Source: an uncultured Pseudomonadota bacterium | GTDB taxonomy: Bacteria; Pseudomonadota; Gammaproteobacteria; Burkholderiales; SG8-39 | Length of the DNA stretch: 64,000 nt | Direction: 5' to 3' | NCBI GenBank assembly: GCA_963817785.1 | Contig: CAWFPL010000007.1 | Coordinates: 338,598 to 402,597, forward strand | Shown: positions 4,652 to 53,132 of the stretch, one piece after another | How the letters are laid out: each line of letters begins with the position of its first letter | Position numbering within the stretch: position 1 is the first letter of the stretch | The notes under the pieces: model-generated | What the model saw: only the letters and a program-made list of their open reading frames with translations | Databases searched by the model: none | What the model was told of the DNA's origin: nothing | Program-made: the position numbers and the translations under genes

Positions 4652-5557
4652 ATGGCCGATCGCCGCCTGCAAGTATTCCACGCCGTCGCCAAGCAGCTGA
4701 GCTTCACCAAGGCCGCCGAGGCGCTGTTCATGACCCAGCCCGCGGTGACCTTCCAGATCAAGCAGCTCGAGGAGCATTTCAACACCCGCCTGTTCGAGCG
4801 CGGCCACGGCCGCATCGCGCTCACGCCCGCGGGGCAGGTGGTGCTCGAGTATGCCGAGCGCATCCTGGGGCTTTCGGCCGAGCTCGACATCCGCTTGAAG
4901 GAGATGACCGGGCAGATCGCCGGGCCCCTGCTGGTGGGCGCGAGCACCACGATCGCCGAATTCCTGCTGCCGCAGGTGCTGGGCGAGTTCAAGTCGAAGT
5001 ACCCGCTGGTTCAGCCGCGCCTGCTGGTGGCGAACTCGGAGATCGTGGAAAACCGCGTCGCGGAACACACGCTCGACATCGGCTTCATCGAGGCGCCGTC
5101 GCACCTGTTGAACGTGAGCACCGACGTGTGCTGCGAGGACGAGCTGCAGGTGGTGTGCGCGCCCTCGCACCCGCTCGCCAAGCTCAAGTCCGCGAGTGCG
5201 AAGCAGCTCGCACAGCACGCGTTCATCAGCCGCGAGTCGGGCTCGGGCACGCGCGAGGTCACCGACCAGTACTTTCAACGCGCCGGGATCCAGCCGGATG
5301 CGCTGAACGTGGTCATGGAGCTCGGCAGCCCGGAAGCGGTCAAGGGTCTGGTGGCGAGCGGCCTGGGCTTCGCCATCATGTCGAGCGCGACCGTGGCGCA
5401 GGAGACCAAGTTCGGCGTGCTGGCGCGCGTGCCCCTCTCGCCGCGCCTGACGCGCGACCTCTCGGTGGTGTACCCCAAGGAGAAGTTCCGCTCGCGGCTG
5501 GTGAACTCGTTCGTGCAATTCGCGAAGGAGCGGCTCGCTGCGGCGCACGGCGCCTGA
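4652..5557 (+). CDS. LysR-family transcriptional regulator
   Basis: N-terminal HTH LQVFHAVAKQLSFTKAAEALFMTQPAVTFQIKQLE followed by a LysR substrate-binding-like C-terminus. Confidence 0.85.
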   Translation: MADRRLQVFHAVAKQLSFTKAAEALFMTQPAVTFQIKQLEEHFNTRLFERGHGRIALTPAGQVVLEYAERILGLSAELDIRLKEMTGQIAGPLLVGASTTIAEFLLPQVLGEFKSKYPLVQPRLLVANSEIVENRVAEHTLDIGFIEAPSHLLNVSTDVCCEDELQVVCAPSHPLAKLKSASAKQLAQHAFISRESGSGTREVTDQYFQRAGIQPDALNVVMELGSPEAVKGLVASGLGFAIMSSATVAQETKFGVLARVPLSPRLTRDLSVVYPKEKFRSRLVNSFVQFAKERLAAAHGA

Positions 5558-5562
5558 GCGCC

Positions 5563-6297
5563 ATGAAGCGCTTCCTCGCCGTCCAGCACACGTTCTCCGA
5601 GTTCTTCGGCGCGCTCGAGCCGCAGTTCGAGGCGCGCGATATCGGCTTCACCTACGTGCGCACGATCGCCGGGCAGGACGTCGCCGGCACGCCCTCGCAG
5701 TTCGACGCGCTGTGGCTGCTCGGCGGCGCACATCCGGCGAACGACCGCAAGCACTGCCCGTTCGTCGAACAGGAGATCAATCTGGTGCACGCCTTCGAAA
5801 AGGCGCGCCGCCCGGTGATCGGGCTGGGCTTTGGTGCGCACGTGCTCGCCGCGGCCCACGGGGCGGCGCTGTTCGCCGAGCCCGAGCACGACGCGCGCTT
5901 TGCGCTGGCGCGGGCGCTGGTCGCGGACGACCCGCTCGCGCGTGCGGTCGATGGCCGCAGCGTGCTGGTGATGGCCAACGGCCGCGCCGAGCTCGCGCCG
6001 GGGCTGGTGCCGCTGGTCGCCGACGAGACGGGCGGCTGGCTCGCGTTCCGCGCGGGCGAATGGTCCTACGGGCTGCTGTTCCGGCCGGAGCTCAAGCCCG
6101 GTATGCTCGAAGACATGGTGATGGAGGAGGACCGTCCCGTGCCCGAGAACATCGGCGAGCTGATCCAGGCCGCGCGCGAGAAGTGGCCGGCGCTGCAGGA
6201 GATCACCGACCGCGTGAGCGCGGCTCTGGTCGCGGCACTCGGGCTGATGGACGAGCGCCGCAAGGCGCCGGTGTTTCCGATCCTGGAGAGGCGCTGA
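5563..6297 (+). CDS. class I glutamine amidotransferase-like protein (nucleophile Cys apparently absent)
   Basis: Internal ATG (M146) of track ORF 5128..6297. The GATase1-like segment VIGLGFGAHVLA has F where the catalytic C is expected. Confidence 0.5.
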   Translation: MKRFLAVQHTFSEFFGALEPQFEARDIGFTYVRTIAGQDVAGTPSQFDALWLLGGAHPANDRKHCPFVEQEINLVHAFEKARRPVIGLGFGAHVLAAAHGAALFAEPEHDARFALARALVADDPLARAVDGRSVLVMANGRAELAPGLVPLVADETGGWLAFRAGEWSYGLLFRPELKPGMLEDMVMEEDRPVPENIGELIQAAREKWPALQEITDRVSAALVAALGLMDERRKAPVFPILERR

Positions 6298-6299
6298 CC

Positions 6300-7382
6300 G
6301 TGCCGCGCCCGATCCGCGCCACCATCAGCGCCGCTGCCCTCGCGCACAACCTCGAGCTGGCGCGACGCCGCGCCGGCACCGCCAGGGTGTGGGCGGTGGT
6401 CAAGGCGAACGCCTACGGCCACGGGCTGCTGCGCGCGGCGCGCGCGCTTGCGGCGGCAGACGGCCTGGCGGTGCTCGACTTCGAGGAGGCGATCCGCCTG
6501 CGTATGTCCGGCGACAAGCGGCCGATCCTGCTGCTCGAGGGCTTCTTCAACGCGCAGGACCTGACGCTGCTCGCGGAATACGGGCTCACCCCGGTGGTGC
6601 ACAACCCCGAGCAGCTCGAGATGCTCAGGAAGACGGCGCTCGCCGCGCCGATCGATGCCTATCTCAAAGTGAACAGCGGCATGAACCGGCTCGGCTTCAA
6701 CGTCGACAACGTGCGACTCGCCTACCAGACCCTGCGCGAGCATCCGCAAGTGCACGGCGTGACGGTAATGACGCATTTCGCCGACGCCGAAGGCGCGGCC
6801 GGTGTCGCGGCGCAGCTCGAATGGTTCAACCAGATGACCGATGCGCTCGCGGGTCCGCGCTCGCTCGCCAACTCGGCGGCGCTGCTGCGCTTTCCCGAAA
6901 CCTGCGCCCAATGGGTGCGCCCCGGGATCATGCTCTACGGCTGCTCGCCGTTCGGCCACGCCGAGCCCGTGCGCAGCGCGCTCGGCCTCGGCCTCGAGCC
7001 GGCGATGACGCTCGAAAGCGAGCTGATCGCCGTGCAGCACCTGCATCCGGGCGAGCGCATCGGCTACGGCTTCTCCTTCGAGGTCTCCGAGGAGATGACC
7101 ATCGGCGTGGTCGCCTGCGGCTACGCCGACGGCTATCCGCGCCACGCGCCCTCGGGCACGCCGGTGCTGGTCGCGGGGCAAAGGACCCGCACCGTGGGAC
7201 GCGTATCGATGGACATGATCTGCGTGGACATCAGCGACATCCCCGAGGCCTACATCGGCTCCGGCGTGACGCTGTGGGGCGAGGGCATGTCGGCCGACGA
7301 GGTCGCGGCCGCCGCGGGCACGCTCAGCTACGAGCTGCTGTGCGCGCTCGCGCCGCGAGTGCCGGTGGTGGAGGTGGGGTAG
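6300..7382 (+). CDS. alr: alanine racemase
   Basis: GTG start at V197 of track ORF 5712..7382. Contains the PLP-lysine motif VVKANAYGHG and C-terminal YELLC. Confidence 0.85.
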   Translation: MPRPIRATISAAALAHNLELARRRAGTARVWAVVKANAYGHGLLRAARALAAADGLAVLDFEEAIRLRMSGDKRPILLLEGFFNAQDLTLLAEYGLTPVVHNPEQLEMLRKTALAAPIDAYLKVNSGMNRLGFNVDNVRLAYQTLREHPQVHGVTVMTHFADAEGAAGVAAQLEWFNQMTDALAGPRSLANSAALLRFPETCAQWVRPGIMLYGCSPFGHAEPVRSALGLGLEPAMTLESELIAVQHLHPGERIGYGFSFEVSEEMTIGVVACGYADGYPRHAPSGTPVLVAGQRTRTVGRVSMDMICVDISDIPEAYIGSGVTLWGEGMSADEVAAAAGTLSYELLCALAPRVPVVEVG

Positions 7383-7422
7383 GGCTTTGGTCAGGCGCGG
7401 TGCGGGTTGGTTTTTTAACCAA

Positions 7423-7471
7423 TCTCCGCATTTTGAGCGGGTCGCGGTCTGACCCGCTCGAAAAGCGGAGA
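7423..7471. repeat. 49-bp nested palindromic repeat (REP-like), copy a
   Basis: TCTCCGCattttGAGCGGGTCgcggtcTGACCCGCTCgaaaaGCGGAGA, anchored on track ORF 7324..7575. Confidence 0.8.
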
Positions 7472-7559
7472 CAATGCAGCGCTCGTGATACACCGCTACC
7501 GGAAGAGGCTGCACGTTCTGCATGTATTGAGCTGCGGTGCAGGTATGGGGGTCGCAGTG

Positions 7560-7608
7560 TCTCCGCTTTTTGCATGGGTCAAAGGGCGACCCATGCAAAA
7601 AGCGGAGA
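7560..7608. repeat. 49-bp nested palindromic repeat, copy b (inner stem replaced)
   Basis: TCTCCGCTTTTTGCATGGGTC...GACCCATGCAAAAAGCGGAGA. Outer arms are conserved; the inner stem differs but is still self-complementary. Confidence 0.8.
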
Positions 7609-7669
7609 TCGGGGAAGAACCTGGTGACAGATGGCGATAGCGCGCGGTCCCGCTTTGCTTTTCAATCGA

Positions 7670-38268: not shown

Positions 38269-38589
38269 ATGGAAACAGAGCCGCGTATCAGCCCGCTTCA
38301 CTATTCGCTGATGGAATCGGTGCCCACCTTCGCCGGCGCCGAGAAGAGCTTCGCGATTGTCAACATCTCCTTCACCGCCGCAATGGTCATGGCCGCGCAG
38401 GCCTGGCAGTTCGTGCTGCCTGGGCTCATCGCGCACGCGTTGCTCGCGTGGCTCACGAAGCGCGATCCGCTCATGCGGGTGATCTACTTCCGCTACGTGC
38501 GCCAAGGCGCTCGCTACGACCCCTGGCCGCGCGAACGGCAAAAGCTGAATGCTCGACCGAAGGGGTTTTGCCGGGGAGCGCCATGCTGA
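38269..38589 (+). CDS. virB3: T4SS protein VirB3
   Basis: 106-aa membrane protein. Its stop overlaps the virB4 start. Confidence 0.65.
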   Translation: METEPRISPLHYSLMESVPTFAGAEKSFAIVNISFTAAMVMAAQAWQFVLPGLIAHALLAWLTKRDPLMRVIYFRYVRQGARYDPWPRERQKLNARPKGFCRGAPC

Positions 38590-41105
38590 ATCTCAAGAAA
38601 AAAGCCGATGAGTTCCTGAATGCTGCGCGCGGCTACTCCGAGCTCATCCCGTGGATGCTTCAGGTCACCCCGGGGCTCGTGCTCAACAAGGACGGATCGC
38701 TCCTCGCGTGCTACGCGCTCGAGGGGCTGGATGCAGCCGACGCAAGCACCGACGCGATCGAGCAGGCCGTCAACACCATGGAGAACGCGCTGCGCGTGTT
38801 CGACGAGCGCATCACCTTGTGGTGGACCGTGGATCGGCGTCGCACGCGCGAGTACCCGGGCGGTGCGTTTCCCGATGACGTGAGCGCGTTCGTCGACCAA
38901 CAGTGGTCCCAGCGGTTCGTGGACGGAAGCTATTTTCGGAACAACCACTGGTTCGCGGTCCTTTACACGCCGCCCGGCGGGGTTGAGGGCTTCATGGGAC
39001 GTATCGGCCAGTTTGTACACGCCGGGCAGGGCACGCTCGATGCGATCGTATCGGCGGCGAAGACCTACCTCAGCATGGAATCGGCCTTTCACTTCGACAA
39101 CGCGAAGATCCAGGCAGAGATCGAGCGGTTCGAGGAAATGCTGGGCTCGTTCGAGCAATCGACGCGGGGCCTGTACCTGCGGCGAGTCTTCGGCCCGGAG
39201 GCACTGCGCCTGTTGCACGACCGCGCTAGCCCGGCGAGCTCGGGGCAGCCGGTCGCCGAGCCCAACGTCACCGAGTTTCTCGATTCGTGGATCGCGGACA
39301 ACACGCTGCGGGTGGGCTCGGATACGCTCGTGTTCGAAGGCAACGCGCCGGTGTTCGCGGCAGCCGCGACCGTGAAATCCTGGCCCCGATTCACCTCGCC
39401 GGGATTGCTCGACGCGCTGCTGGCACTGCCCGCCGAGATCACGCTTTCGCTTTGCTTTCGCTACGTCGAGATGCAAGCCGCTAAGAAGTACATCGAGGAA
39501 GTGCGCAAGAACAATCTCAACAGCGCCAAATCGATGCTCACGTACCTGCAGGAAGCGCTCTCGGGCAAGCCCTCGGATAAGGTGGACGCGGGCAAGATGG
39601 CTGCGGCGCAGGACGCCAACGACGCGCTCCTATCGATTACCGCGCAGAAGCGCTTCTTCGGCTACTTCAACATGACGGTGATCGCCTTTGGGGCGAGCCC
39701 CGAGCAGACGGAGGAGGGCATGCGCCTGGTCGCCCAGGCGATCAACAACCTCGGCTTTCTCACGCTGCGAGAGCGCCTCCACTTGCTCTCGGCATGGGCA
39801 GGAACGCTCCCAGGGCAGTGGGGCGAGCTCGTGCGTTGGTTCTTCCTATCGTCTGCGAACCTCTCGGACCTGGCGCCGATCCGCACGATCGCGATGGGCG
39901 AGGCGCAAAACGAGTACCTCTCGGAGCAGACCGGCCGGCCGTGCCCGGCGCTCACGGCGCTGCCTACCGAGTGGGGGGTACCGTTCTTTTTCAATCTGCA
40001 CCAAGGCGACCGGGCGCACACGCTGGTGATCGGCCCCACGCGCTCCGGCAAGTCGGTGTTCATGAACTTCCTCATCACGCAGTTCAGGAAGTATTACCCC
40101 TGCCGCGCGTTCATCTTCGACAAGGACTATTCCTGCCGGATCCCGTCGCTACTCATGGGTGGCTCGCACATCGACATGTCGGGCGACGATACGCGGGTGC
40201 GGGTGAACCCGCTCTCGCTCCTTGCCGATCGCGACGCGTGGCTGTGGGTCGCGAAGTGGCTCGAGCTGCTGCTCGCCGGGCGCGGGCGGCCGCTCTCGGC
40301 CGCGGACTCGGAGGTGATCTGGGAGGCGGTCGAGCGGACAGCCAGCATGCCGCCGGCGCAGTGGCGGTTGCTCTCGCTCGCGCAGTTTCTCGGGTCTCGC
40401 TCGAAGGACCTGGGCAAGGAGATCGAGGAGTGGGTCGGGCACGGTGCGCGCTCGCGCTACTTCGACCACGTGGAGGATGACTTCCAGCTTGCCGACCTCG
40501 CCTGTATCGAGGTCGGCAAGCTCTTCGAGGATACGCTCATTGCGCCCCTGTTTCTCGAATACGCTTTCCAGCGAGTGGGCATGACGCTCGACGGCACGCC
40601 CACGCTCATCTATGTGGAGGAGTGCTGGTACATGCTGATGTACGAGCGCTTTGCGGCGCGGCTGGACGACTGGCTGCGCACGCTCGGCAAGAAAAACGCG
40701 TTCGTGGTGCTCACCACGCAGGGACTCTCCGAACTCGCCAAGTCGCAGTATTTCGGCACGATCCTGGATAACGTCGCGAACACGATCTTTCTGCCGAACG
40801 CCAAGGCCTTCGCGCACGAGGCGCTGTACGTAGAGAAATTCGGGCTCAACACCGAGCAACTAGAGCGCATCCGGGACGCCGTGCCGAAGATGAACTACTA
40901 CATCGTCACGCCATCGATGGCGAGGATGGCCGTGGTGAGTCTGCCGCCGATGGTGCTCGCGTGCGTCCGAAGCGATTCCAGGGCGCAGAAGCTCTTCCTG
41001 AAGCACTACGCCACGCGGGGCGAGTGCGATGACTGGCGGGAACGCTATCTCAACGAGGCGGCGATAGGAAGGACCGAAAGCGCGGTGCCCGAGGTCGCGC
41101 CGTAA
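38583..41105 (+). CDS. virB4: T4SS ATPase VirB4
   Basis: Start at M46 of the track ORF. Walker A GPTRSGKS, Walker B LIYVEECW, 840 aa. Confidence 0.9.
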   Translation: MLNLKKKADEFLNAARGYSELIPWMLQVTPGLVLNKDGSLLACYALEGLDAADASTDAIEQAVNTMENALRVFDERITLWWTVDRRRTREYPGGAFPDDVSAFVDQQWSQRFVDGSYFRNNHWFAVLYTPPGGVEGFMGRIGQFVHAGQGTLDAIVSAAKTYLSMESAFHFDNAKIQAEIERFEEMLGSFEQSTRGLYLRRVFGPEALRLLHDRASPASSGQPVAEPNVTEFLDSWIADNTLRVGSDTLVFEGNAPVFAAAATVKSWPRFTSPGLLDALLALPAEITLSLCFRYVEMQAAKKYIEEVRKNNLNSAKSMLTYLQEALSGKPSDKVDAGKMAAAQDANDALLSITAQKRFFGYFNMTVIAFGASPEQTEEGMRLVAQAINNLGFLTLRERLHLLSAWAGTLPGQWGELVRWFFLSSANLSDLAPIRTIAMGEAQNEYLSEQTGRPCPALTALPTEWGVPFFFNLHQGDRAHTLVIGPTRSGKSVFMNFLITQFRKYYPCRAFIFDKDYSCRIPSLLMGGSHIDMSGDDTRVRVNPLSLLADRDAWLWVAKWLELLLAGRGRPLSAADSEVIWEAVERTASMPPAQWRLLSLAQFLGSRSKDLGKEIEEWVGHGARSRYFDHVEDDFQLADLACIEVGKLFEDTLIAPLFLEYAFQRVGMTLDGTPTLIYVEECWYMLMYERFAARLDDWLRTLGKKNAFVVLTTQGLSELAKSQYFGTILDNVANTIFLPNAKAFAHEALYVEKFGLNTEQLERIRDAVPKMNYYIVTPSMARMAVVSLPPMVLACVRSDSRAQKLFLKHYATRGECDDWRERYLNEAAIGRTESAVPEVAP

Positions 41106-42415: not shown

Positions 42416-43771
42416 ATGATCCCACAGGCACACGGTTTGGCAAGTCCAGGCCAGGCAGCACAAGGAACTCGCTGCAAGCTTGCAGTTGCGATGGCGCAAA
42501 TCGTCGTGGCCGGGCTTGTGCTGTCGTTGCTTTCCGCGAGCGCGTGGGCGGCGGAAACCGGGACAGCGGCGACCGCAAGCAGCGGATTGCAAGCGGTGGA
42601 AGGGGCGCTGCAAAGCGTACAGGGCAACCTACAGGGTATCGGCTCGCAGCTATTCACTTATTTGGCGTTCATCGCAGTCGTATGGTGGGCTGCGCAACTG
42701 GTGCTGCTCGGCGGCGACTTCACGAATACCTTCGGCGGGTTCATGCGGACCGTGTTTATTTTGGGCTTCACTTACTTCCTCATGCTGCCGTATGCGGCCG
42801 GGCAAACGCCCCTGGTGTGGTTCGTGGACAAGCTCACCACCGCTGTCACGAGGACGCTCACGGGCAATCCCACCGGCGACGTCTCCGGCATTGCGAGCGG
42901 CGCCTTCAGCAATCTGTACGGGATGATCGGGCTGCTCATGCAAGCTCTGATGAAGCCGTTCAGCTCCTCGCACGGATTCCTGGCTGGAATGGAGGCGATC
43001 GGTGTGTTGTTCGCCAACCTCCCCATGGTGCTGTTCCTGGGCCTCGCGATCGTCTTTCTTTGGTTCGCTGGCATCACGCTTTTCGTGATGGCGACGATCG
43101 GGCTGATCATGTTCAAGGTCGCCGATGTGTTCGCGCCGCTCTTCGTCCCGTTTCTGGCCTTGCCCGTCGTCAGCTGGCTTTTCGATGGGTGGCTGCGGTT
43201 TCTGCTTTCGGCTTCGATGTACAAGATCGCCGGGGCCGTGATCCTGCTGCTAGGTAGTGCGGTCATGCAGAGCATGGTGCCGCTCCTGTTGTCGGGTACC
43301 ATGGATTGGGGCCAGGTGACGATAGGCGGCATGGTCGTGGCCGCGCTCGCGTTTTCCCTCCTGTACATCATGCTGCAACTACCAAACATCGCTCACGGCC
43401 TGATCAGCGGTCACGCCACGGTGCAGATGCAACGCATGATGGGCTCGGTCGCTCGCGGTGGACAGCTCGCGGCAGGGGCCACGCTCGCGGCGGCAGGCTC
43501 CGGGCCTAAGCTGATCGAGGCAGGAGTCAGTGCAGCGAAGGGCAGCATTGAAGCGGGCAGGGCCGCCGCCACGTACGCGCGCGGTGCCGTAACTGGGACG
43601 GCCATGGCCTATGCCGTCGGCGGGGTTGGGGGGGTGGCGAAGGCGACGGGCCAGTCCGGGCTGGACGGGACAGGACGCCTTGCAAGCGGCGCGCTGAGCA
43701 GCTATCGCAGGGCGAGCGAGGCGAGCCGGCGCACGGGCCTGAACATCATGTCGCGCGCGCGAAGAAGGTAG
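42416..43771 (+). CDS. virB6: T4SS inner-membrane protein VirB6/TrbL
   Basis: 451 aa with multiple TM helices and a Gly/Ala-rich C-terminus. AGGAAGGA lies 7 nt before the ATG. Confidence 0.75.
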   Translation: MIPQAHGLASPGQAAQGTRCKLAVAMAQIVVAGLVLSLLSASAWAAETGTAATASSGLQAVEGALQSVQGNLQGIGSQLFTYLAFIAVVWWAAQLVLLGGDFTNTFGGFMRTVFILGFTYFLMLPYAAGQTPLVWFVDKLTTAVTRTLTGNPTGDVSGIASGAFSNLYGMIGLLMQALMKPFSSSHGFLAGMEAIGVLFANLPMVLFLGLAIVFLWFAGITLFVMATIGLIMFKVADVFAPLFVPFLALPVVSWLFDGWLRFLLSASMYKIAGAVILLLGSAVMQSMVPLLLSGTMDWGQVTIGGMVVAALAFSLLYIMLQLPNIAHGLISGHATVQMQRMMGSVARGGQLAAGATLAAAGSGPKLIEAGVSAAKGSIEAGRAAATYARGAVTGTAMAYAVGGVGGVAKATGQSGLDGTGRLASGALSSYRRASEASRRTGLNIMSRARRR

Positions 43772-44270: not shown

Positions 44271-44636
44271 CGCGTCGCCATGCGTGCCTCGGGCAGCTTC
44301 AACATCCAGACACTGTAGGGTGTCATCTAAGACGTATCGCATCGCTACGGCTGTCTCATGCAGGGCTGCGATGGGTAGGCGCACGTAGTCAATAGGGCTT
44401 ACGAGTGCATCCTCAATCGCCACGGGTAACCACGTTTGCATTGGTTTGGGAGGCGCGACCAGCCGGTTTCGGCCACGAAGCGACGGTCGCCAGTGTTGCT
44501 TCGAACGACAGCCGTTCGGCCATTGCTGCCGCTTAGATCGGAAACATTGAGCGGCCGGTGTCCAGCTGCCTGCTGACGTTGGTTAAGATTGCAATTCGAA
44601 TTACCGCTTCTATGGAGCCGGAGGACGGCATCCGAC

Positions 44637-44858
44637 CGATACTGTTGAAAAAGTCCAAATCGGGAAGGCGCAAAAATGTCAGCGAATATTGATGCGATTC
44701 AAAATTCGGCGACGGTTGGCTCGTTGTGCTTATTAGAGGGCCCCAGGTCGAGATCTCGTACTGTCCGGGCATCCCCTCTAGCTGGACGCGCGCATCGTCG
44801 CCCATAACGGCTAGAAATTATCGACTCTCGGCGCAAGCACAGTTTTTCAACAGTATCG
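44637..44858. mobile_element. 222-bp miniature inverted-repeat element (MITE-like)
   Basis: Perfect 16-bp terminal inverted repeats CGATACTGTTGAAAAA / TTTTTCAACAGTATCG. The termini resemble those of the IS1182-like element at 56559..58168. Confidence 0.6.
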
Positions 44859-45027: not shown

Positions 45028-47718
45028 GTGTCTTTGCAGACGATGGGGGGAGACATGGGGAGCGCCAGGGAAGACTACGAGCACTTCGTGCGCTGGCTGC
45101 ACCAGCCCGACAGGCGCGTTCGAGAGGACGTTCTGCGCTTTGCCAACATGGTTCTGGCGGACTTCGAGCGTACCGCCGGGACCTTCCGCCAGCACAATAG
45201 CCGTTCAAACCATCTGGCGGTCCTCGCGCGCCGAGTTCTTGCCACGACATCTGCTGCTGTGCCAGAGGCACCGGCGCAGAACCCCGCACTACCTTGGCCT
45301 TGGAAGAGACTGCGGCAGCTCTCGGTTGGTCCGTTCAGGGGATTTCGACGAAACGAGTCGTTCGACCTGCAAAAGCGCGTGCTTCTTATCTACGGGCCGA
45401 ACGGCAGCGGTAAGAGCAGTCTGTGCGAGGCGTTGGAGCACACGCTCCTCGGAACGGTGCAGGAAGCTGAGGCCAGACGCATCGAGGCCCAGCAGTACTT
45501 CGCAAACATCCATGCCCGACGCTTCGTCGCGCCACGGCTCACGGCAACGGATCATGGCGACCAGGAAATCGTCGTAGCGGCGAATCCCGACACTTATCGT
45601 TTCTGCTTCGTCGAAAAGAATCGCATCGAAGCATTTGCGCGGATGGCTGCTCGGCCACCCGCCACGAGGACCGAGCTCATCGCCACGCTGTTTGGCATGG
45701 AGAAATTTAACGACTTTGCGAGTCACTTCAACGAATCGATGGATGCGGCGCTGGTTTGCGACGCCGAGAACGAGCGTGCATTGACCAGCCGCCGGCAAGT
45801 TCTCGCCCGCGACCAGCAAACCGTCGCCGCCGAGCAAGCGTCCTTGATGAAGCTCAACCAGGGGGAAGCGACATTCGCCGAGGGCTGCCGGCCAGGCACG
45901 TCCTATGTCGATCTCAAGGCGTGGATTGGTACTCCGGAAGCGCCCGGACGCCTGCAGGAGCTTGACGGCATCCTGAACGTCGTTCCGCCGGCGGTCGTGG
46001 GGATCACACGCGAGGGATTGGCCAATCGCTATACGGCAGCGGACGGCGCAGCGGACCGCTTGGGAACAGCGACCAGACAGCTCGAGGCAAGAAGCCACCA
46101 GGTTTCCTTCAAGGACCTTTACACCGCAGTGCTCGCCTTGCAAGCGGCCCATGAAGACCGATGCCCTGCGTGCGACACCCCGCTGAATGCCGTTACCACT
46201 GATCCGTACCAGAAGGCAACGGCGGGTCTACGGGATCTCCGCGATCTTGCCGCACTGCAGGAAGAGGCCGCGCGTTGTCGCCAACAGCTGGATGAGGCAT
46301 CACGATCCTTGCGTGTGGACCTCAATATCGCGTTCGCTTCGATGACTCAGAACGAGCAGAACACGACGCCCGTGGGGCGCTATATCGCCGGACTGGATCA
46401 AGCACCACGCGGTGATCGCTGGTGGCAGGACGTCTACGCTCCAATAAGAGGTGACGGCCGGGAAGTGGAGCCGGCGTCGCTGGAGCAAGTGCTGGAAATC
46501 GCGTCGCGCATCGAGCTACGGGATCAGGAGATTCAACGTCAGGTTCAGGAACGTCAGGCACTCGTCCAAGAACGGGATACGCTGCTATTGTGGCAGCGTC
46601 AGATTCTGGAGCGGGACCTCGCCCGCAAATCCGCTGTGGATGAGATCGCCGCGGCCCGAGGACGTATCGCGCGATTTGACGAAGAAAATTCGGGTCTTAT
46701 TCAGCGGGCTGCCCAAGAACGTCAGAACATCGAGCGGGATCGCCCCATTAAGGTGGCGTACGACCAGTTTCTACCGATGCTGCGGTGCTTTAGGAACGAA
46801 CTGCCCGGCTTGCTGATGGAGGGCCTCAACGATCTCGCGAGAGACCTTTACAACGAATTCAACCAGCACGATCCCGAAGCGGACAAATTCGCCTCGCTGC
46901 ACCTTCCCCTAACGGGCGAACAGCGCATCGATATCGCATTTCGTGGCGACCCACAGCGTCGCCTCGACGCCCTGGTGATTCTGAGTGAGGGACATATTCG
47001 ATGTCTCGGACTTGCAATCCTGATGGCGAAGGCGATCAGCACTGGCTGCTCGCTGATCATATTCGACGATGCGATCAACGCCATCGACCATGACCATCGG
47101 AGCGGTATTCGGCAGACTATTTTCGAGAGCGATCGTTTTCGGGAGATTCAGCTCGTCGTCACCTGCCACAGCGGTGAGTTCATCAAGGACATCCACAATC
47201 ATTTGCCGCAGTACAGCCGAAACGATTGGACGGAGTATGTCATCAGCCACCACGCCGGCGACTATCATCCACAGGTGGTCTCGAACACAATGAGCCGAAA
47301 CTACGTGGAGCGGGCGCGAGTCGCCAAGAACGCATTGGACGACCGCGAGGCGCTTTCCTGCGGTCGCAGAGCACTGGAAATGCTATCCAACAAGGTCTGG
47401 AAATGGCTCGCGTCCTTCGGCCGCGGCGAACTGCGATTGGAACTGAGAGGTCCGGGAGCCGAGCCGTCGCTGCGAGATCTCTGCGAAGCGCTGCGTACAA
47501 GATTGAACGACAATACCTTCGTGCATCCGGAGAAGGATTCGATTGTCGATGCCCTGAATCTCATACTGGGAATTCCGGCACAAAACCTTATTTGGACCTA
47601 TCTCAACAAGGGCACGCACGAACGCGCCGATCGCGACGATTTCGACGCAGCGCATGTCGAAAGCGTAATTGCCACACTTGAACATCTCAACGACCTTCGG
47701 CTACGTCGCGCTGCATAG
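45028..47718 (+). CDS. Rad50/SbcC-like ABC (SMC-type) ATPase with CxxC hook and extra C-terminal domain
   Basis: Walker A GPNGSGKS, long coiled-coil insert containing RCPACD, signature-like LSEGH, Walker B LIIFDDAINAID, H-loop VVTCHS. Alternative ATG starts at 45043 and 45055. Confidence 0.7.
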   Translation: MSLQTMGGDMGSAREDYEHFVRWLHQPDRRVREDVLRFANMVLADFERTAGTFRQHNSRSNHLAVLARRVLATTSAAVPEAPAQNPALPWPWKRLRQLSVGPFRGFRRNESFDLQKRVLLIYGPNGSGKSSLCEALEHTLLGTVQEAEARRIEAQQYFANIHARRFVAPRLTATDHGDQEIVVAANPDTYRFCFVEKNRIEAFARMAARPPATRTELIATLFGMEKFNDFASHFNESMDAALVCDAENERALTSRRQVLARDQQTVAAEQASLMKLNQGEATFAEGCRPGTSYVDLKAWIGTPEAPGRLQELDGILNVVPPAVVGITREGLANRYTAADGAADRLGTATRQLEARSHQVSFKDLYTAVLALQAAHEDRCPACDTPLNAVTTDPYQKATAGLRDLRDLAALQEEAARCRQQLDEASRSLRVDLNIAFASMTQNEQNTTPVGRYIAGLDQAPRGDRWWQDVYAPIRGDGREVEPASLEQVLEIASRIELRDQEIQRQVQERQALVQERDTLLLWQRQILERDLARKSAVDEIAAARGRIARFDEENSGLIQRAAQERQNIERDRPIKVAYDQFLPMLRCFRNELPGLLMEGLNDLARDLYNEFNQHDPEADKFASLHLPLTGEQRIDIAFRGDPQRRLDALVILSEGHIRCLGLAILMAKAISTGCSLIIFDDAINAIDHDHRSGIRQTIFESDRFREIQLVVTCHSGEFIKDIHNHLPQYSRNDWTEYVISHHAGDYHPQVVSNTMSRNYVERARVAKNALDDREALSCGRRALEMLSNKVWKWLASFGRGELRLELRGPGAEPSLRDLCEALRTRLNDNTFVHPEKDSIVDALNLILGIPAQNLIWTYLNKGTHERADRDDFDAAHVESVIATLEHLNDLRLRRAA

Positions 47719-47940
47719 GTAGCTACGAATCGAGCCACTACGTCGCGCCCTTTGCTGAATAGAGCCCTGGCTCAATTTCTCAAGTGTCGGCTTCTTGCCG
47801 GGAGCGCCCGTTGAGTAGAGCGCTGCAAAGCAGACCTACGTCAATCCACCTGTTTTGCCATCGTCCGCTCTCAGCGGATGCGGGGAACCGCCGCTTTCGG
47901 CCGTGAACGGACTTCCGAGCCGACCTTCGGCCATGAGAGA

Positions 47941-48179: not shown

Positions 48180-49480
48180 AACAGCGTCCTAGTCGTCGAC
48201 ATCGCTAAATATGGATCGCCCCTTCGGCGCTGCAGCGACCTTTGCTGGTGAAATGTTCGACCAAAAACCAACATCTTCCTCGGGGGCTTTCTTATTGGAA
48301 ACGTCTGCTATGGCGTCGTCGATCTGGCCACTTAGTAAATCCAGCATGTTTTGAACAGTCGCGTCGTCCGAAAACGCTTCTTGCAATTGCTCAACAAAGT
48401 TCCGGACCTGGTCAAATTGGTTTGGTATATCAAACTCTGGATCAGCTTCATCTGCAAGTTCCGATATGCGGTCCGAAACAACGCTGTCGAGTGTGGCCAC
48501 CAGCTGGACTCCTAGTCGTATAAGTTGAGTGGGCCGAAGGAGCGCCAGGATGTCGTCGTCACTCAAGAAGGAGGCGTCAAGGTCGTTAAGCGCGGCCCGT
48601 TCGAGTTTGTCTGCCATTTCAAAGCGAATCTCCTCCGGCAGTCGGTGCAGATTGTGAACGCGTGCGAGAAAGCGCAGCCGCCGGTCACTGGCGATTCGCC
48701 AAAAGTGTTGGTGTTGAGCCTCACGTCGAAACAAAATTGAGTCTGCACCCAAAATGGCGGTGACCACTGTGTCTGATGCGCGGTTTGTTAAGAACTCAAG
48801 CAGAGGTCCATTGATTTCAGGCACGTCGGGCACCCCAATCAAACGACCAACTAAGTGCTCAAATGCCGACAGCGGAATAACAACAGCATCGCGAATCGAT
48901 TCGGCACCTTCGCATACGGCTTCGGCAAGCAATGTCTCGAGCTTCGCCCCCTGAACATATAGTTCCACTAGGTCGGAACGCGCGCTTAGCATGCTACTGA
49001 TAGCATCGGTGAACGTGGGGTGCACGAAGCCCCAGATCTGCTGAGAATCGTCTTGGCGAACCGATACAAATGACCCCTTCAACTGCGGTAGCGCATCAGC
49101 AATCGCGCGCGCAGTGACGCCGTACTTTTCGGCGACCAGGCTCGTCGAATCGCTAGCGAGGTCATGCGCCGGCAGCCTTCCTTGGCGAAGGAAGACAAGG
49201 GTCATGGCCGCTTGGTGCGGCTCGTCCAACTCTCGGATCGTTTGAACCAAGAACTCTGCCGGTTCTGCGACAAACTTGATCAAGTCATCAGGAAAGCTTT
49301 TCAGCGCTTTGGTATAGGTGCGATCGCCCAAGCGACGTGCAATCTCCGGCAGCAGCCGCGAATTTCCGGCTAATGCAGGTAGGTGGGCCTTTATCCGGCG
49401 CTTCCAAGCAGCTGTTTGATTCCCCGCCTTCAAATGGTTATAGATGATCTGCTCGCGTTCTTCTGGGCTTAATGAACCTA

Positions 49481-50583
49481 TTGAGTATTTCCTAACCTCG
49501 TGACAACCGAATTGTTCCTCATGCGTTACTCGGGTGTTGGCATAACATCGGAGTTTGCGCATGAAGACGAAGAACAAAATCGATGCCGGGGCGAAGCGCC
49601 GGGTGCGGGCGGCGCGGCTGCTTCAGGCCGGTCACGCTCCCGCGCAGGTGGCTGCTATGGTGGGCGCGCCGCGCCAGACGGTATACCGCTGGAAGGGCGT
49701 GCTGGAGTCCGAGGGAATCGATGCGCTTCGGAGCGTGAGCAAGGGCGGGCGTCCCGCCCGACTCGGTGCCGAGGAACTGTCCAAGCTGCAAGTAGCTTTG
49801 CTCGAAGGCCCGACGGCGCACGGCTTTGGCACGTCGCTCTGGACGATCAAGCGGGTGCGCGTGTTTATCGAGCGGCGCTTCGGCGTTCACTACAGCGAGG
49901 TTCATGTCTGGCGGTTGCTCGGGCAGTTGGGCTTCTCCAGCCAGAAGCCCGATCGGCGTGCGCTGGAGCGCGATGATGTGGCCATCGAGCATTGGAAGCG
50001 GCACACCTGGCCCGGGCTTAAAAAAAAGCCCGCCGCGAGGACCGGCTGATCGTCTTCATCGACGAATCGGGCCTGTCGCAGCGCCCCACACGGGTGCGCA
50101 CCTGGGCGGTGAGAGGCGAGACTCCGGTGCTCCAGTTCTGCTTCAACTGGGACCACGTCTCGGTGATCGCCGGAATGCACTATCGCGGCGTGTGCTTTCG
50201 GCTTCACGAAGGCTCGGTCAAGAAAGAGCAGGTCCTCGAGTTCCTCAAGGCGCTCAAAGCCCACTATCGCCGCCGGCTTCTCATCTTGTGGGATGGAGGC
50301 AGACCTCACCGCAGTCGCTTGGTGCGCGACTACGTGGACTCGACCGACGGCGACATCCAGCTCGAGTTCCTGCCCGGCTACGCCCCGGAACTCAACCCCG
50401 TGGAGTACCTCTGGGCTTGGCTCAAGCGCCATGCGCTGGCGAACTTCTGCCCCGAGACGTTGAGCGAACTCCAGCACACCGCTCGCGGCAAGCTGAAATC
50501 CGCCCAACGGCGCTCCGCCATCATCGCCTCCTGCTGGGAACAGGCTCAACTGTTCTAATGTCATGCGGTTAGGTAATACTCAA
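49481..50583 (+). mobile_element. IS630-family insertion sequence, copy 1 (1103 bp, TA target duplication)
   Basis: Imperfect terminal inverted repeats TTGAGTATTTCCTAACC... / ...GGTTAGGTAATACTCAA, flanked by TA on both sides. Confidence 0.9.
49561..50558 (+). CDS. IS630-family transposase, two frames joined by a -1 shift at an A8 run
   Basis: The HTH part ends just after CTTAAAAAAAAG. The DDE part (LIVFIDESG...LPGYAPELNPVEYLW) continues in the -1 frame. Confidence 0.85.
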
Positions 50584-52004
50584 TAGATCGACTACGGCCC
50601 TGTCATCTGCTAGAACGGGCAAATTCCTCGTACCCAGTTTCGGTTTCGCGCCATGCCAGATGTGGCTCCGAGAGGTCAGAATGAATCGGTTTCCGGACTC
50701 AATCGCCGCCTTCACCTTTGGCATCGCGTTGATCCAACAATCGACAAAATCCGATCTGAGTTGATTTGGTCCGAACGCATCGTCGACCCAGTAGAGTCGA
50801 TTCTTCTCGTGCGGATTCCATCGACTGGCTAGTTCGAGGGGGCCGTCACACTTCAGACATTGATGGTGCTCGCCGTCGATTGCAGTCGTTGACAGGATCG
50901 CGGCGAGCATGGACTTTCCAGTCGCGGGTGCCCCCAGAAGCAGAACGATCTTGTGTTCTGCCAACATACGGACGGCGGTGCGATGGGCGGCAGTTGGTAC
51001 GTAGACACGCAGGCCTGGTTGCAGGTGTCCCAGAAGGGCTTGCGTTTGCTGCGTGCATCTTTCATCAAGGATCGTCGATAAGTCCCCCAAGCCATATACA
51101 CATGGCACCAAGGCTCGCAATCGAGCGCTGCCTCGGATCTGTAGCGTCACCCACTCTCGACCGAGTACATGGGGCTCACGAACGCCCGCTTCGACAAGTT
51201 TGTCTCGGATTTGCGCAGCGACAGGGGCATCGACTCCCAAGCTCGTAATGAGATAGTACGTCTCTGCTCGTCTCGCGGCCACCAACTCGCGAACCGTAGC
51301 CAACTCTGCATCAATAGCAGTTGCACGCAGCCGCTGGTCGGCCTTGCCGCTAAACTTGCACTGAACGGTGGCTTCAGAGCCCGTTTGGTCAGAGCCTGCC
51401 TTTCGCAATTGGAAGACGGCGTCTTGCCCACCGTCCTGGGCCTCGCGGTAGATCGAGACTGTTGTACCCAATGTCTCCGCGCATACCTGCGCGCAGAGAT
51501 CTTGAAATGCCTTCCACCCAAGCGTGTGAATGGCTAGATCAACGTTGGCGCCTTGTACCTGCACTTCAGCCTCCGGCCTTCATGCTGGAATGGATGGACT
51601 AGAAATCTGCGTGTTTGCAATCTGGGACATAGGTCGCGGTACGCTCCGTGGGCAGGCAAACACAGCGCCGTTCAGCTAAATGGCCCTTCCAAGTCATTTA
51701 ATCACCGAACAGCCGAAACGCCCAGACCCTCTCGACCTGAATGTTCGCAGCCTGCAGCGCCAGGCGCACGGACTCGGCATCGGGCGCCCGGTAAAGGCTG
51801 ATCATTCGCCGGCGGTCGGACGACAGGTAGCGCCATAAGTGTGCCAAGGGCAATCAGCATTTTTCAGAGTGTCGCAATTTGCCTCCCCTGATCCCCGTAA
51901 AATCGCAAATGGCCGAATCAGCGGGGCGGATCGCCCAGTCACCGCCAACTGCGGCATTCTACTTTTCAGTGGCTCCTTTCTGGAAACGCGGCAGGCTACT
52001 TCGG

Positions 52005-52301: not shown

Positions 52302-53132
52302 CTATTTTCGGTTTGGGCGGCGAACCACGCTCGTCCCATTCTCGTTGTAGCGCACCGGAAACGCATCAGGGTCATAGCGCGCGTCTAGCATCGAGGCCTC
52401 GGGCAATATCAGCGTCAGCACCTCACTCCCCATGGCCACGGAATGTTCGCGCACCTCGTATTCGCCGCCGTCGGCGTTCGTAAACCATGCGTCGGCTCCA
52501 GACTTTCGAAGCCCCGTTTCCTGCTTGCCGGAGATGAGCAGGTCGTACGCAAAGCTATCTTCGTCGAGTTCTTGCTTGAGATACCACCTGCGAGGGACGT
52601 CCGGCGTCCGTAAAAACCACCGCAGCCCACTGTCGTCGTAGCTGGTCAGGATGGCCGGCACGGTATTAACGTCGATAAGTCGAATCGCAGCACTCAAGAG
52701 TCCGCAGTCAAAATCTGCTGCGAGGAGAGCGAGGTCGTTTAGCGAAGGCGTCTTGATTTCCTTAATGCGCGGCTTAAACAGATGACCAGGCATTAGCAAG
52801 TGGGCCGCATAGTGATCCGCTTCGCGCTCCTTGGTTCGGTCTGCTGCAGCCAAGTTGACGGACACATCGTCGACGCGGCATCGGAAAGACTGTCCCCGAT
52901 GATGATGCCAGTGGCCGAGCTCGTGGCCGATGGAAAACCGCTGACGCGTCGGGCGGATGCCCTTCTGGATGGTCGCGATCGCGCGACCCCCTATGCCAAC
53001 GAGGGTCGCTTCGCACCCTTGCAGGCGCTCGTAGCGCACTTCCACGCCAGCCTCGAAGGCGATCGCTTCGACATCGATCTCCTTGGGTGCAGTGATGCCG
53101 AGCTCGGCGATGCATTCCTCGGCCGGGTGCAT
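52302..53132 (-). CDS. ImmA/IrrE-family zinc metallopeptidase with about 130-aa C-terminal domain
   Basis: HEXXH motif HELGHW with downstream E...HLLMP. Third gene of a tightly packed operon. Confidence 0.75.
   Translation of the reverse strand: MHPAEECIAELGITAPKEIDVEAIAFEAGVEVRYERLQGCEATLVGIGGRAIATIQKGIRPTRQRFSIGHELGHWHHHRGQSFRCRVDDVSVNLAAADRTKEREADHYAAHLLMPGHLFKPRIKEIKTPSLNDLALLAADFDCGLLSAAIRLIDVNTVPAILTSYDDSGLRWFLRTPDVPRRWYLKQELDEDSFAYDLLISGKQETGLRKSGADAWFTNADGGEYEVREHSVAMGSEVLTLILPEASMLDARYDPDAFPVRYNENGTSVVRRPNRK

Follow-up and report, generated by a model that had tools for sequence, protein, structure and literature searches.

The window analysed here is a stretch of 64,000 nucleotides from an uncultured Pseudomonadota bacterium (assembly GCA_963817785.1, contig CAWFPL010000007.1). 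An open reading frame (ORF) at positions 45028–47718 of its forward strand encodes a Rad50-like ATPase with a CxxC hook, here termed the zinc-hook ATPase. Its relatives, the zinc-hook family, are an unnamed and structurally distinct variant that is a distant cousin of the anticodon nuclease RloC. The copies inspected in public records, on plasmids and in E. coli genomes, are named only "AAA family ATPase", and some of them additionally bear an inferred "double-strand break repair" term.

The reading frame is uninterrupted, as the earlier note on this DNA had stated, and counts 896 residues from a GTG codon; the gene is intact. Homologues begin with MGSAREDY or MxSAK, matching M10 of the 896-aa reading, and GGGGGGAG is found immediately upstream of the ATG at position 45055. 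Thus, by comparison with homologues, the true start is likely ATG 45055 and the likely product is 887 aa, with an N-terminal extension of about 85 aa, not the ~95 aa given earlier. One database record begins at ATG 45043 (891 aa). A scan for promoters and terminators around the gene gave nothing better than shuffled sequences. Amino acid positions below refer to the 896-aa reading. The head of the protein is of the type shared by ATP-binding cassette (ABC) and structural maintenance of chromosomes (SMC) proteins, and model confidence is given as the predicted local distance difference test (pLDDT). The parts of the gene are:

45028–47718, forward strand: full ORF, 896 codons from GTG; likely start ATG 45055 (887 aa).
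45055–45306, forward strand: all-helical N-terminal extension (aa 10–93), specific to the family, R59 invariant; helices at 11–24, 33–44, 46–50 and 55–73.
45307–45762, forward strand: N-lobe of an ABC/SMC-type ATPase head (aa 94–245), with Walker A at 45394–45417; within the Pfam SMC_N match.
45763–46827, forward strand: helical coiled-coil insert (aa 246–600), with a lower-confidence joint at about 288–327 and 443–484, as read from the secondary structure and pLDDT of the model.
46162–46173, forward strand: zinc-hook motif C379-P-A-C382, a turn between two helical arms in the model; C379, P380 and C382 are invariant in 95 sequences.
46828–47205, forward strand: C-lobe of the ATPase head (aa 601–726), with LSEGH at 46981–46995, Walker B/D-loop at 47050–47088 and H714 at 47167–47169.
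47206–47715, forward strand: C-terminal HEPN-like helical domain (aa 727–896), with candidate motifs R780-x3-E784 (47365–47379) and N860-K-G-T-H864 (47605–47619).

The motifs listed in the earlier note were all found: Walker A, GPNGSGKS (aa 123–130); RCPACD, whose cysteines are C379 and C382; the ABC signature LSEGH (aa 652–656); the Walker B/D-loop LIIFDDAINAID (aa 675–687); the H-loop, TCH714; and about 170 residues beyond the ATPase head (aa 727–896). The insert is shorter than the ~500 aa proposed there, as the model helices at 247–596 amount to about 350 aa, and the hook lies somewhat N-terminal of the middle rather than at about the midpoint.

The Pfam SMC_N match spans residues 95–725, and the PDB sequence matches of the protein are SMC and Rad50 heads. 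The N-terminal extension has no match to Pfam or PADLOC models and no usable neighbour in the protein-language-model Atlas. Pfam and PADLOC scans of the C-terminal domain, the N-terminal extension and the coil, each taken in isolation, yielded nothing significant; the single sub-threshold Pfam match of the isolated C-terminal domain was HHH_9 (E = 0.19). A PDB sequence search with the profile of this domain also gave nothing significant, and the Pfam model HEPN_RES_NTD1 (PF18870) finds nothing in the genome at E ≤ 1. Helices one and two of the C-terminal domain (P0001 residues 740–790) weakly resemble an archaeal MIT domain in sequence (2w2u; E = 0.16), probably a chance similarity between helical hairpins.

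With E ≤ 1e-3 as the limit, a word-seeded search with the zinc-hook ATPase yielded 1,486 proteins; the top 120 of these are all 854–953 aa in length, with a coverage of 96–99%. When 1.84 billion cluster representatives were searched exhaustively with HMMER, 516 passed E ≤ 1e-10, and under the stricter E ≤ 1e-30 there were 290 (50%-identity clusters). Members are nearly all 870–900 aa and are matched over their full length. The gene, described earlier as an orphan, therefore belongs to a family of ~885-aa proteins that is, as judged from these searches, widespread but rare.

Conservation was followed in an alignment of 95 diverse members (22–54% identity). Invariant positions are R59, the Walker A residues, E137, E196, C379, P380, C382, P393, N612, P627, S653, G655, D680, D681, N684, D687, H690, H714, R780, N860 and H864. 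In the C-terminal domain, R780 is present in 95 of 95 members, E784 in 94 and W791 in 91. The ATPase and hook motifs are invariant or nearly so, far beyond chance. Hook, N-terminal extension and C-terminal domain are conserved across the 95 members and hence belong to the family as a whole, not to one copy by accident.

A full-length AlphaFold2 model (mean pLDDT 89.8, predicted TM score (pTM) 0.72) displays, in order, the N-terminal helices, the alpha/beta head, long helices on either side of the CPAC turn, the C-lobe and the helical C-terminal domain. The N-terminal element consists of four helices at residues 11–73 with a pLDDT of about 95, and a joint within the helical arms is modelled at lower confidence. 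Foldseek searches with the full model returned Rad50, cohesin/condensin SMC heads, JetC, MukB and Lamassu LmuB (E-values down to 8e-11), in agreement with the SMC_N match and with the PDB sequence matches.

The C-terminal 170 residues were also modelled alone from a 37-sequence alignment (pLDDT 85.2, pTM 0.79) and show six helices and two short strands. The earlier note had suggested Foldseek for this extension, whose fold it regarded as unassigned; its estimate of about 170 residues holds. HEPN domains make up 11 of the first 13 PDB ranks, i.e. HepT/MntA, SsR10 (2q00), TM0613 (1o3u), TT1696 (1ufb), AF_0298 (2hsb), 1wty, the HEPN domain of human sacsin and ST0689 (1wol), with Csm6 slightly lower. 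These matches have probabilities up to 0.99 and target-normalised TM scores of 0.44–0.60, with weak E-values (0.08–1). A Foldseek comparison of the domain with viral structures was uninformative. Sequence motifs and model together make an RNase of the HEPN type, as in RloC, the most likely identity of the C-terminal domain.

RloC is a wobble-nucleotide-excising anticodon nuclease (Davidov and Kaufmann, 2008; PMC2610378). In its ABC ATPase part, a coiled coil bearing a CxxC zinc hook divides the head, and its C-terminal anticodon-nuclease triad is Arg-x3-Glu-x36–52-His, where a Ser often precedes the His (PMC2610378). The nuclease domain was later assigned to the HEPN superfamily (PMC3710099). 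The nuclease becomes active when the hook is mutated, activation requires DNA and the ATPase, and RloC is switched on in vivo by inducers of double-strand breaks (PMC3458546, PMC3874168). Both the triad and the switch formed by hook, ATPase and DNA have been demonstrated experimentally (PMC2610378, PMC3458546, PMC3874168).

For comparison, 19 RloC-type proteins with the AAA_13 domain (PF13166), 18 of them intact, were taken from a 400-genome sample of the phylum. Their length is 722–793 aa, with the exception of L088, which is stopped at 630 aa. The CxxC motif is at residues 255–301 in 18 of the 19, and L093 has its sole CxxC at 372. The pattern R-x3-E ... [ST]H was found in 17 of the 18 intact proteins. 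The typical RloC-type form is R[RK]xLE-x36–44-[WFY][VI]NxxSH, and that of the zinc-hook family is R[QR]ALE-x79-YLNKGTH.

A global hhalign comparison of the 95-member profile with that of the 18 intact AAA_13 proteins gave a probability of 99.9% (E = 2e-31), and a local comparison of the same profiles gave 99.2% (E = 1.3e-19). The local alignment reaches from the end of the coil via the C-lobe of the head into the C-terminal domain. The ATPase motifs of the two sets align, and YLNKGTH (aa 858–864) is paired with WVNDGSH, such that N is opposite N, G opposite G, [TS] opposite S and H opposite H. In addition, the nearest named language-model neighbours of the C-terminal domain of a homologue (P0052, 57% identical) are AAA_13 clusters, with scores of 0.85–0.88; this link is taken as a lead only.

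The protein thus has a Rad50-like head, a hooked arm and a HEPN-like domain in one polypeptide, and is remotely homologous to RloC. The likeness lies in a single chain with an ABC head broken by a coiled coil that bears a CxxC zinc hook, in a C-terminal, probably HEPN-type domain with candidate R-x3-E and N-x-x-[ST]-H motifs, and in a stand-alone, laterally transferred gene that is only occasionally beside type I restriction-modification (R-M) genes. At the level of sequence, the invariant or nearly invariant N860/H864 and R780/E784 match the catalytic motifs of RloC. In contrast to RloC, the zinc-hook family has a unique helical N-terminal domain of ~85 aa with an invariant Arg, a Glu-to-His spacing of 79 rather than 36–52, which would come from an inserted hairpin and helix, and the signature LSEGH rather than LSEGE; it is also about 100 aa longer and much rarer. 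PrrC is alike in that an ABC ATPase controls an RNase of the HEPN type at the C-terminus, which has an Arg-Glu-His triad, but it lacks both coiled coil and hook and is always found inside a type I R-M locus that keeps it silent (PMC3458546).

Taken together, the analysis suggests, with a probability of roughly 60%, that the product of the gene is an RloC-like defence protein, complete in itself and of the abortive-infection type, in which the ATPase with its hook would be the sensor and the RNase the effector. By analogy with the RloC experiments, a hook-linked dimer would hold the RNase silent in the resting state. Abnormal DNA (ends, breaks, phage or incoming-plasmid DNA) would bind the Rad50-like part, and this binding would activate the RNase by way of the head, which would bind and hydrolyse ATP. 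The activated RNase might then cut tRNA or other RNA without metal ions, so that translation would stop and the infection, or the establishment of a foreign element, would be aborted. The N-terminal helical domain with R59 probably adds to sensing or to auto-inhibition. The sensor idea of the earlier note stands in part: the zinc-hook ATPase likely senses phage or foreign DNA, but the effector does not appear to be absent, since the C-terminal domain is most likely the RNase.

Several observations weigh against this interpretation. The RNase activity of the family is a prediction from sequence and model, and the HEPN assignment has the weak Foldseek E-values of 0.08–1 beneath it. The isolated C-terminal domain goes unrecognized by Pfam and PADLOC models. 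The full protein reaches only 22.1 bits with Pfam AAA_13 against a gathering cut-off of 36, over residues 103–167 (the P-loop region) only; a genome-level AAA_13 search gave the zinc-hook ATPase 25.8 bits, likewise under the cut-off. When the C-terminal domain alone is compared with that of RloC by hhalign, the match is weak (P = 0.006, probability 6%), with the same pairing of the His. The canonical HEPN arginine (Rx4–6H) is absent, as L859-N-K-G-T-H864 has no Arg at positions H-4 to H-6; 15 of the 18 sampled RloC-type proteins also have no Arg 4–6 residues before the His, e.g. WVNDGSH.

The first half of the domain, with the R-x3-E helix, gives no significant hhalign alignment with RloC C-terminal domains, and therefore the equivalence of R-x3-E with that of RloC is by motif only. 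The helix R780-R-A-L-E784 visually resembles R-R-V-L-E of RloC. Yet hhalign sets the RloC helix onto the third helix of the zinc-hook family, the site of R816-x3-E820, a pair that has an RloC-like spacing of 43 but is missing in distant members. R780/E784 may be read as the functional pair because it is invariant; if so, the stretch from Glu to His would be longer by about 35 residues, which form a hairpin and a helix, and the spacing from E784 to H864 (79) is beyond the 36–52 of RloC. A single site holding R780, E784, N860 and H864 together is putative.

The surroundings of the gene were examined in the window and at 50 homologous loci from other species. In the window the gene sits on a conjugative element, just downstream of type IV secretion genes, VirB4-like (38448–41105) and TrbL/VirB6-like (42416–43771). 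The G+C content of its stretch is ~0.53–0.62, compared with ~0.63–0.70 upstream. The features on either side are:

44516–44637, no strand: short dispersed repeat upstream of the gene; three other copies in the genome, 84–90% identical.
47783–47895, no strand: a different short repeat downstream; one other copy, 87% identical.
48189–51561, reverse strand: Mrr_cat-nSTAND3 gene, convergent with the zinc-hook ATPase gene and split by a 1,090-bp insertion sequence (IS) at 49482–50571; a related gene recurs at 4 of the 50 other loci.

The two repeats, of about 110–120 bp, are unrelated to each other, and the idea that one element brackets the gene was rejected. They replace the neighbouring miniature inverted-repeat transposable element of the earlier note. 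A perfect 16-nt inverted repeat is also present (44637–44652 and 44843–44858). What had been taken for a decayed defence-like operon is one Mrr_cat-nSTAND3 gene, a restriction-endonuclease fold with a STAND NTPase, broken by the IS: its halves (51561–50572 and 49481–48189) together align over the whole length of an undisrupted 758-aa homologue. The genome carries the IS in at least eight complete, identical copies as well as several half copies. An ORF on the reverse strand (52302–53132), which belongs to this low-G+C cargo too, displays an IrrE/M78 peptidase domain (E = 1.5e-11), and its neighbouring ORFs have no Pfam match.

At the 50 other loci no flanking gene family is common to more than four, so that the survey for conserved partners proposed earlier found none. 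A Mrr_cat-nSTAND3 gene adjoins the zinc-hook ATPase at L009, L021, L022 and L035, thus at 5 of 51 loci with the window, and all five are within a subclade of ≥50% identity. Its placement varies (upstream tandem, downstream tandem, convergent). The recurrent adjacency may mean that the two genes use a common island slot or that they work as a pair. Type I R-M genes (HsdR, HsdM, HsdS) flank distant members at three to four loci (L027, L045, L047 and also L030); at L027 an hsdS-like gene ends 18 bp ahead of the ATPase start. This adjacency recalls the linkage of prrC and of some rloC genes.

The zinc-hook family is present in 2 of 400 other genomes of the phylum and in none of 150 genomes of the same taxonomic family. 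AAA_13 proteins, in comparison, are found in 19 of 401 genomes of the same phylum sample, such that the zinc-hook family is about tenfold rarer (2 vs 19 genomes). Members are carried by 30 plasmids, 20 of them conjugative and 7 mobilizable; none was found in the phage records searched. Among complete E. coli genomes, 16 of 5,426 carry a member; in this species the gene, a full-length member of 37% identity, lies at a prophage edge. A seventeenth E. coli genome, found with a different probe, has a member in an integrase-bounded island beside defence-like genes. The family is thus very patchy and is cargo of integrative and conjugative elements (ICEs), conjugative plasmids, prophages and islands, which agrees with the view of a partner-less SMC-like ATPase as mobile-element cargo in the earlier note. 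The picture of consistently chromosomal housekeeping genes with an SbcD-like partner elsewhere, which the earlier note would have counted against its idea, does not hold.

Two of these loci are described as examples. In an island of E. coli TB06053 (L121), a member has a "three component ABC system" (DUF3732) as a neighbour and is followed immediately by a gene for a CHAT-domain protein. In a Kosakonia F-type conjugative plasmid (L118, accession number NZ_CP040393.1, positions 5001–7667), a member lies between parM partition genes and leading-region-type genes (DNA methyltransferase, DUF1380, antirestriction protein).

The protein may also be compared with other SMC/ABC-type sensor ATPases of defence islands, i.e. 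LmuB, PtuA, AriA, GajA and the candidate PDC-S06. PADLOC gave weak matches to defence ATPases (E = 1e-16 to 1e-5), and these span only the P-loop region or the C-lobe. PDC-S06 matches (E = 1.8e-12 to 4e-6) cover 48–140 residues each, in the C-lobe (one up to residue 791) or in the P-loop region; the literature that mentions PDC-S06 reports no functional test of it. These ATPases use separate effectors (LmuA, PtuB, AriB) or a fused Toprim, whereas the presumed effector of the zinc-hook ATPase is a fused HEPN-like domain and there is no conserved partner. DARNA/PD-T7-3 was rejected as a relative, as its architecture is unrelated.

Of the other explanations, the one that survives best is a DNA-sensing SMC-like ATPase with a non-catalytic C-terminal domain that binds a regulator, a nucleotide or RNA, killing being done in trans, e.g. 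by Mrr_cat-nSTAND3, following a Lamassu-like logic. The best PADLOC matches, LmuB and mad3, the absent Rx4–6H arginine, the weak fold matches and the adjacency of Mrr_cat-nSTAND3 in four different arrangements are all consistent with it. The LmuB match, however, is limited to the P-loop region, and a conserved LmuA/LmuC operon of the Lamassu type is missing from the 50 loci. Invariant R, E, N and H within a helical bundle are typical of catalytic HEPN domains of the RloC/PrrC type. Because the Mrr_cat-nSTAND3 neighbour is absent at ~90% of loci, with no other neighbour at more than 4 of 50, and is destroyed by the IS in the window beside an intact ATPase gene, this explanation is weakened and is considered unlikely.

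A bolder reading is likewise held to be unlikely. Here the family would be a distinct class of one-protein immune sensor, whose N-terminal domain (R59) and enlarged HEPN-like domain form a new gated RNase. One subclade may pair with Mrr_cat-nSTAND3. Since copies are found on ICEs and in plasmid leading regions, the protein might sense DNA arriving by conjugation rather than phage DNA.

A role apart from defence, in which a Rad50/SbcC-like protein would repair or tether DNA for the benefit of the mobile element itself, e.g. in its stability, its partition or the processing of DNA that is being transferred, is quite improbable. The Rad50-like head, the antiparallel helical arm and the apical CxxC hook fit such a role, as do the RefSeq Gene Ontology term "double-strand break repair" on plasmid copies, which is an electronic inference, and the one copy between partition and leading-region genes of an F-type plasmid. 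In contrast to Rad50/SbcC, the zinc-hook ATPase has a much shorter arm and extra N-terminal and C-terminal domains, the conserved C-terminal one having no counterpart in Rad50/SbcC. The TIGR00618 (SbcC) model gives 11 bits against a cut-off of 478, and the SbcC/Rad50 NCBIfams overall give 11–18 bits against cut-offs of 478–1087. An SbcD/Mre11 partner, whose absence had been observed earlier, is not beside the gene at any of the 50 loci. The genome of the window (99.6% complete) has no match to SbcD (TIGR00619) and none above cut-off to SbcC. In addition, the gene takes different positions on its carriers, and most related elements do without it. Thus the missing nuclease partner, the patchy occurrence and the extra domain weaken this explanation.

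That the protein is a true but diverged RloC orthologue, with the same tRNA targets and wobble-nucleotide excision, is the least probable of all: the order of parts is identical and the motifs are the same, but the AAA_13 threshold is failed, an N-terminal domain and ~35 residues in the nuclease domain are extra, the Glu-to-His spacing differs, and the family is so much rarer in the phylum sample.

On the RloC-like reading, the zinc-hook ATPase is not a new kind of Rad50 sensor, as the RloC-type architecture has been known since 2008. The combination of an ABC/Rad50-like ATPase with a HEPN anticodon nuclease is already known from RloC, PrrC and the ABC-HEPN fusions of Anantharaman et al. (2013; PMC3710099). 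Two of these fusions, APECO1_4465 and ERFG_01251, likewise have a C-terminal HEPN domain and occur in prophages or mobile islands; they were compared with the zinc-hook family by description only. Among the 16 E. coli genomes in which members were found, strain APEC O1 does not figure.

The gain from the RloC-like identity would be moderate, because architecture and logic are already known from RloC. If true, it would correct the "AAA family ATPase" and "double-strand break repair" annotation of these genes. It would also add one more family to the short list of single proteins that couple Rad50-like DNA sensing to RNA cleavage. To our knowledge there is no solved structure of RloC, and a well-behaved relative could therefore be useful. 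The zinc-hook family would then be a second independent lineage in which the control of a HEPN nuclease by a zinc hook and an ABC head could be tested.

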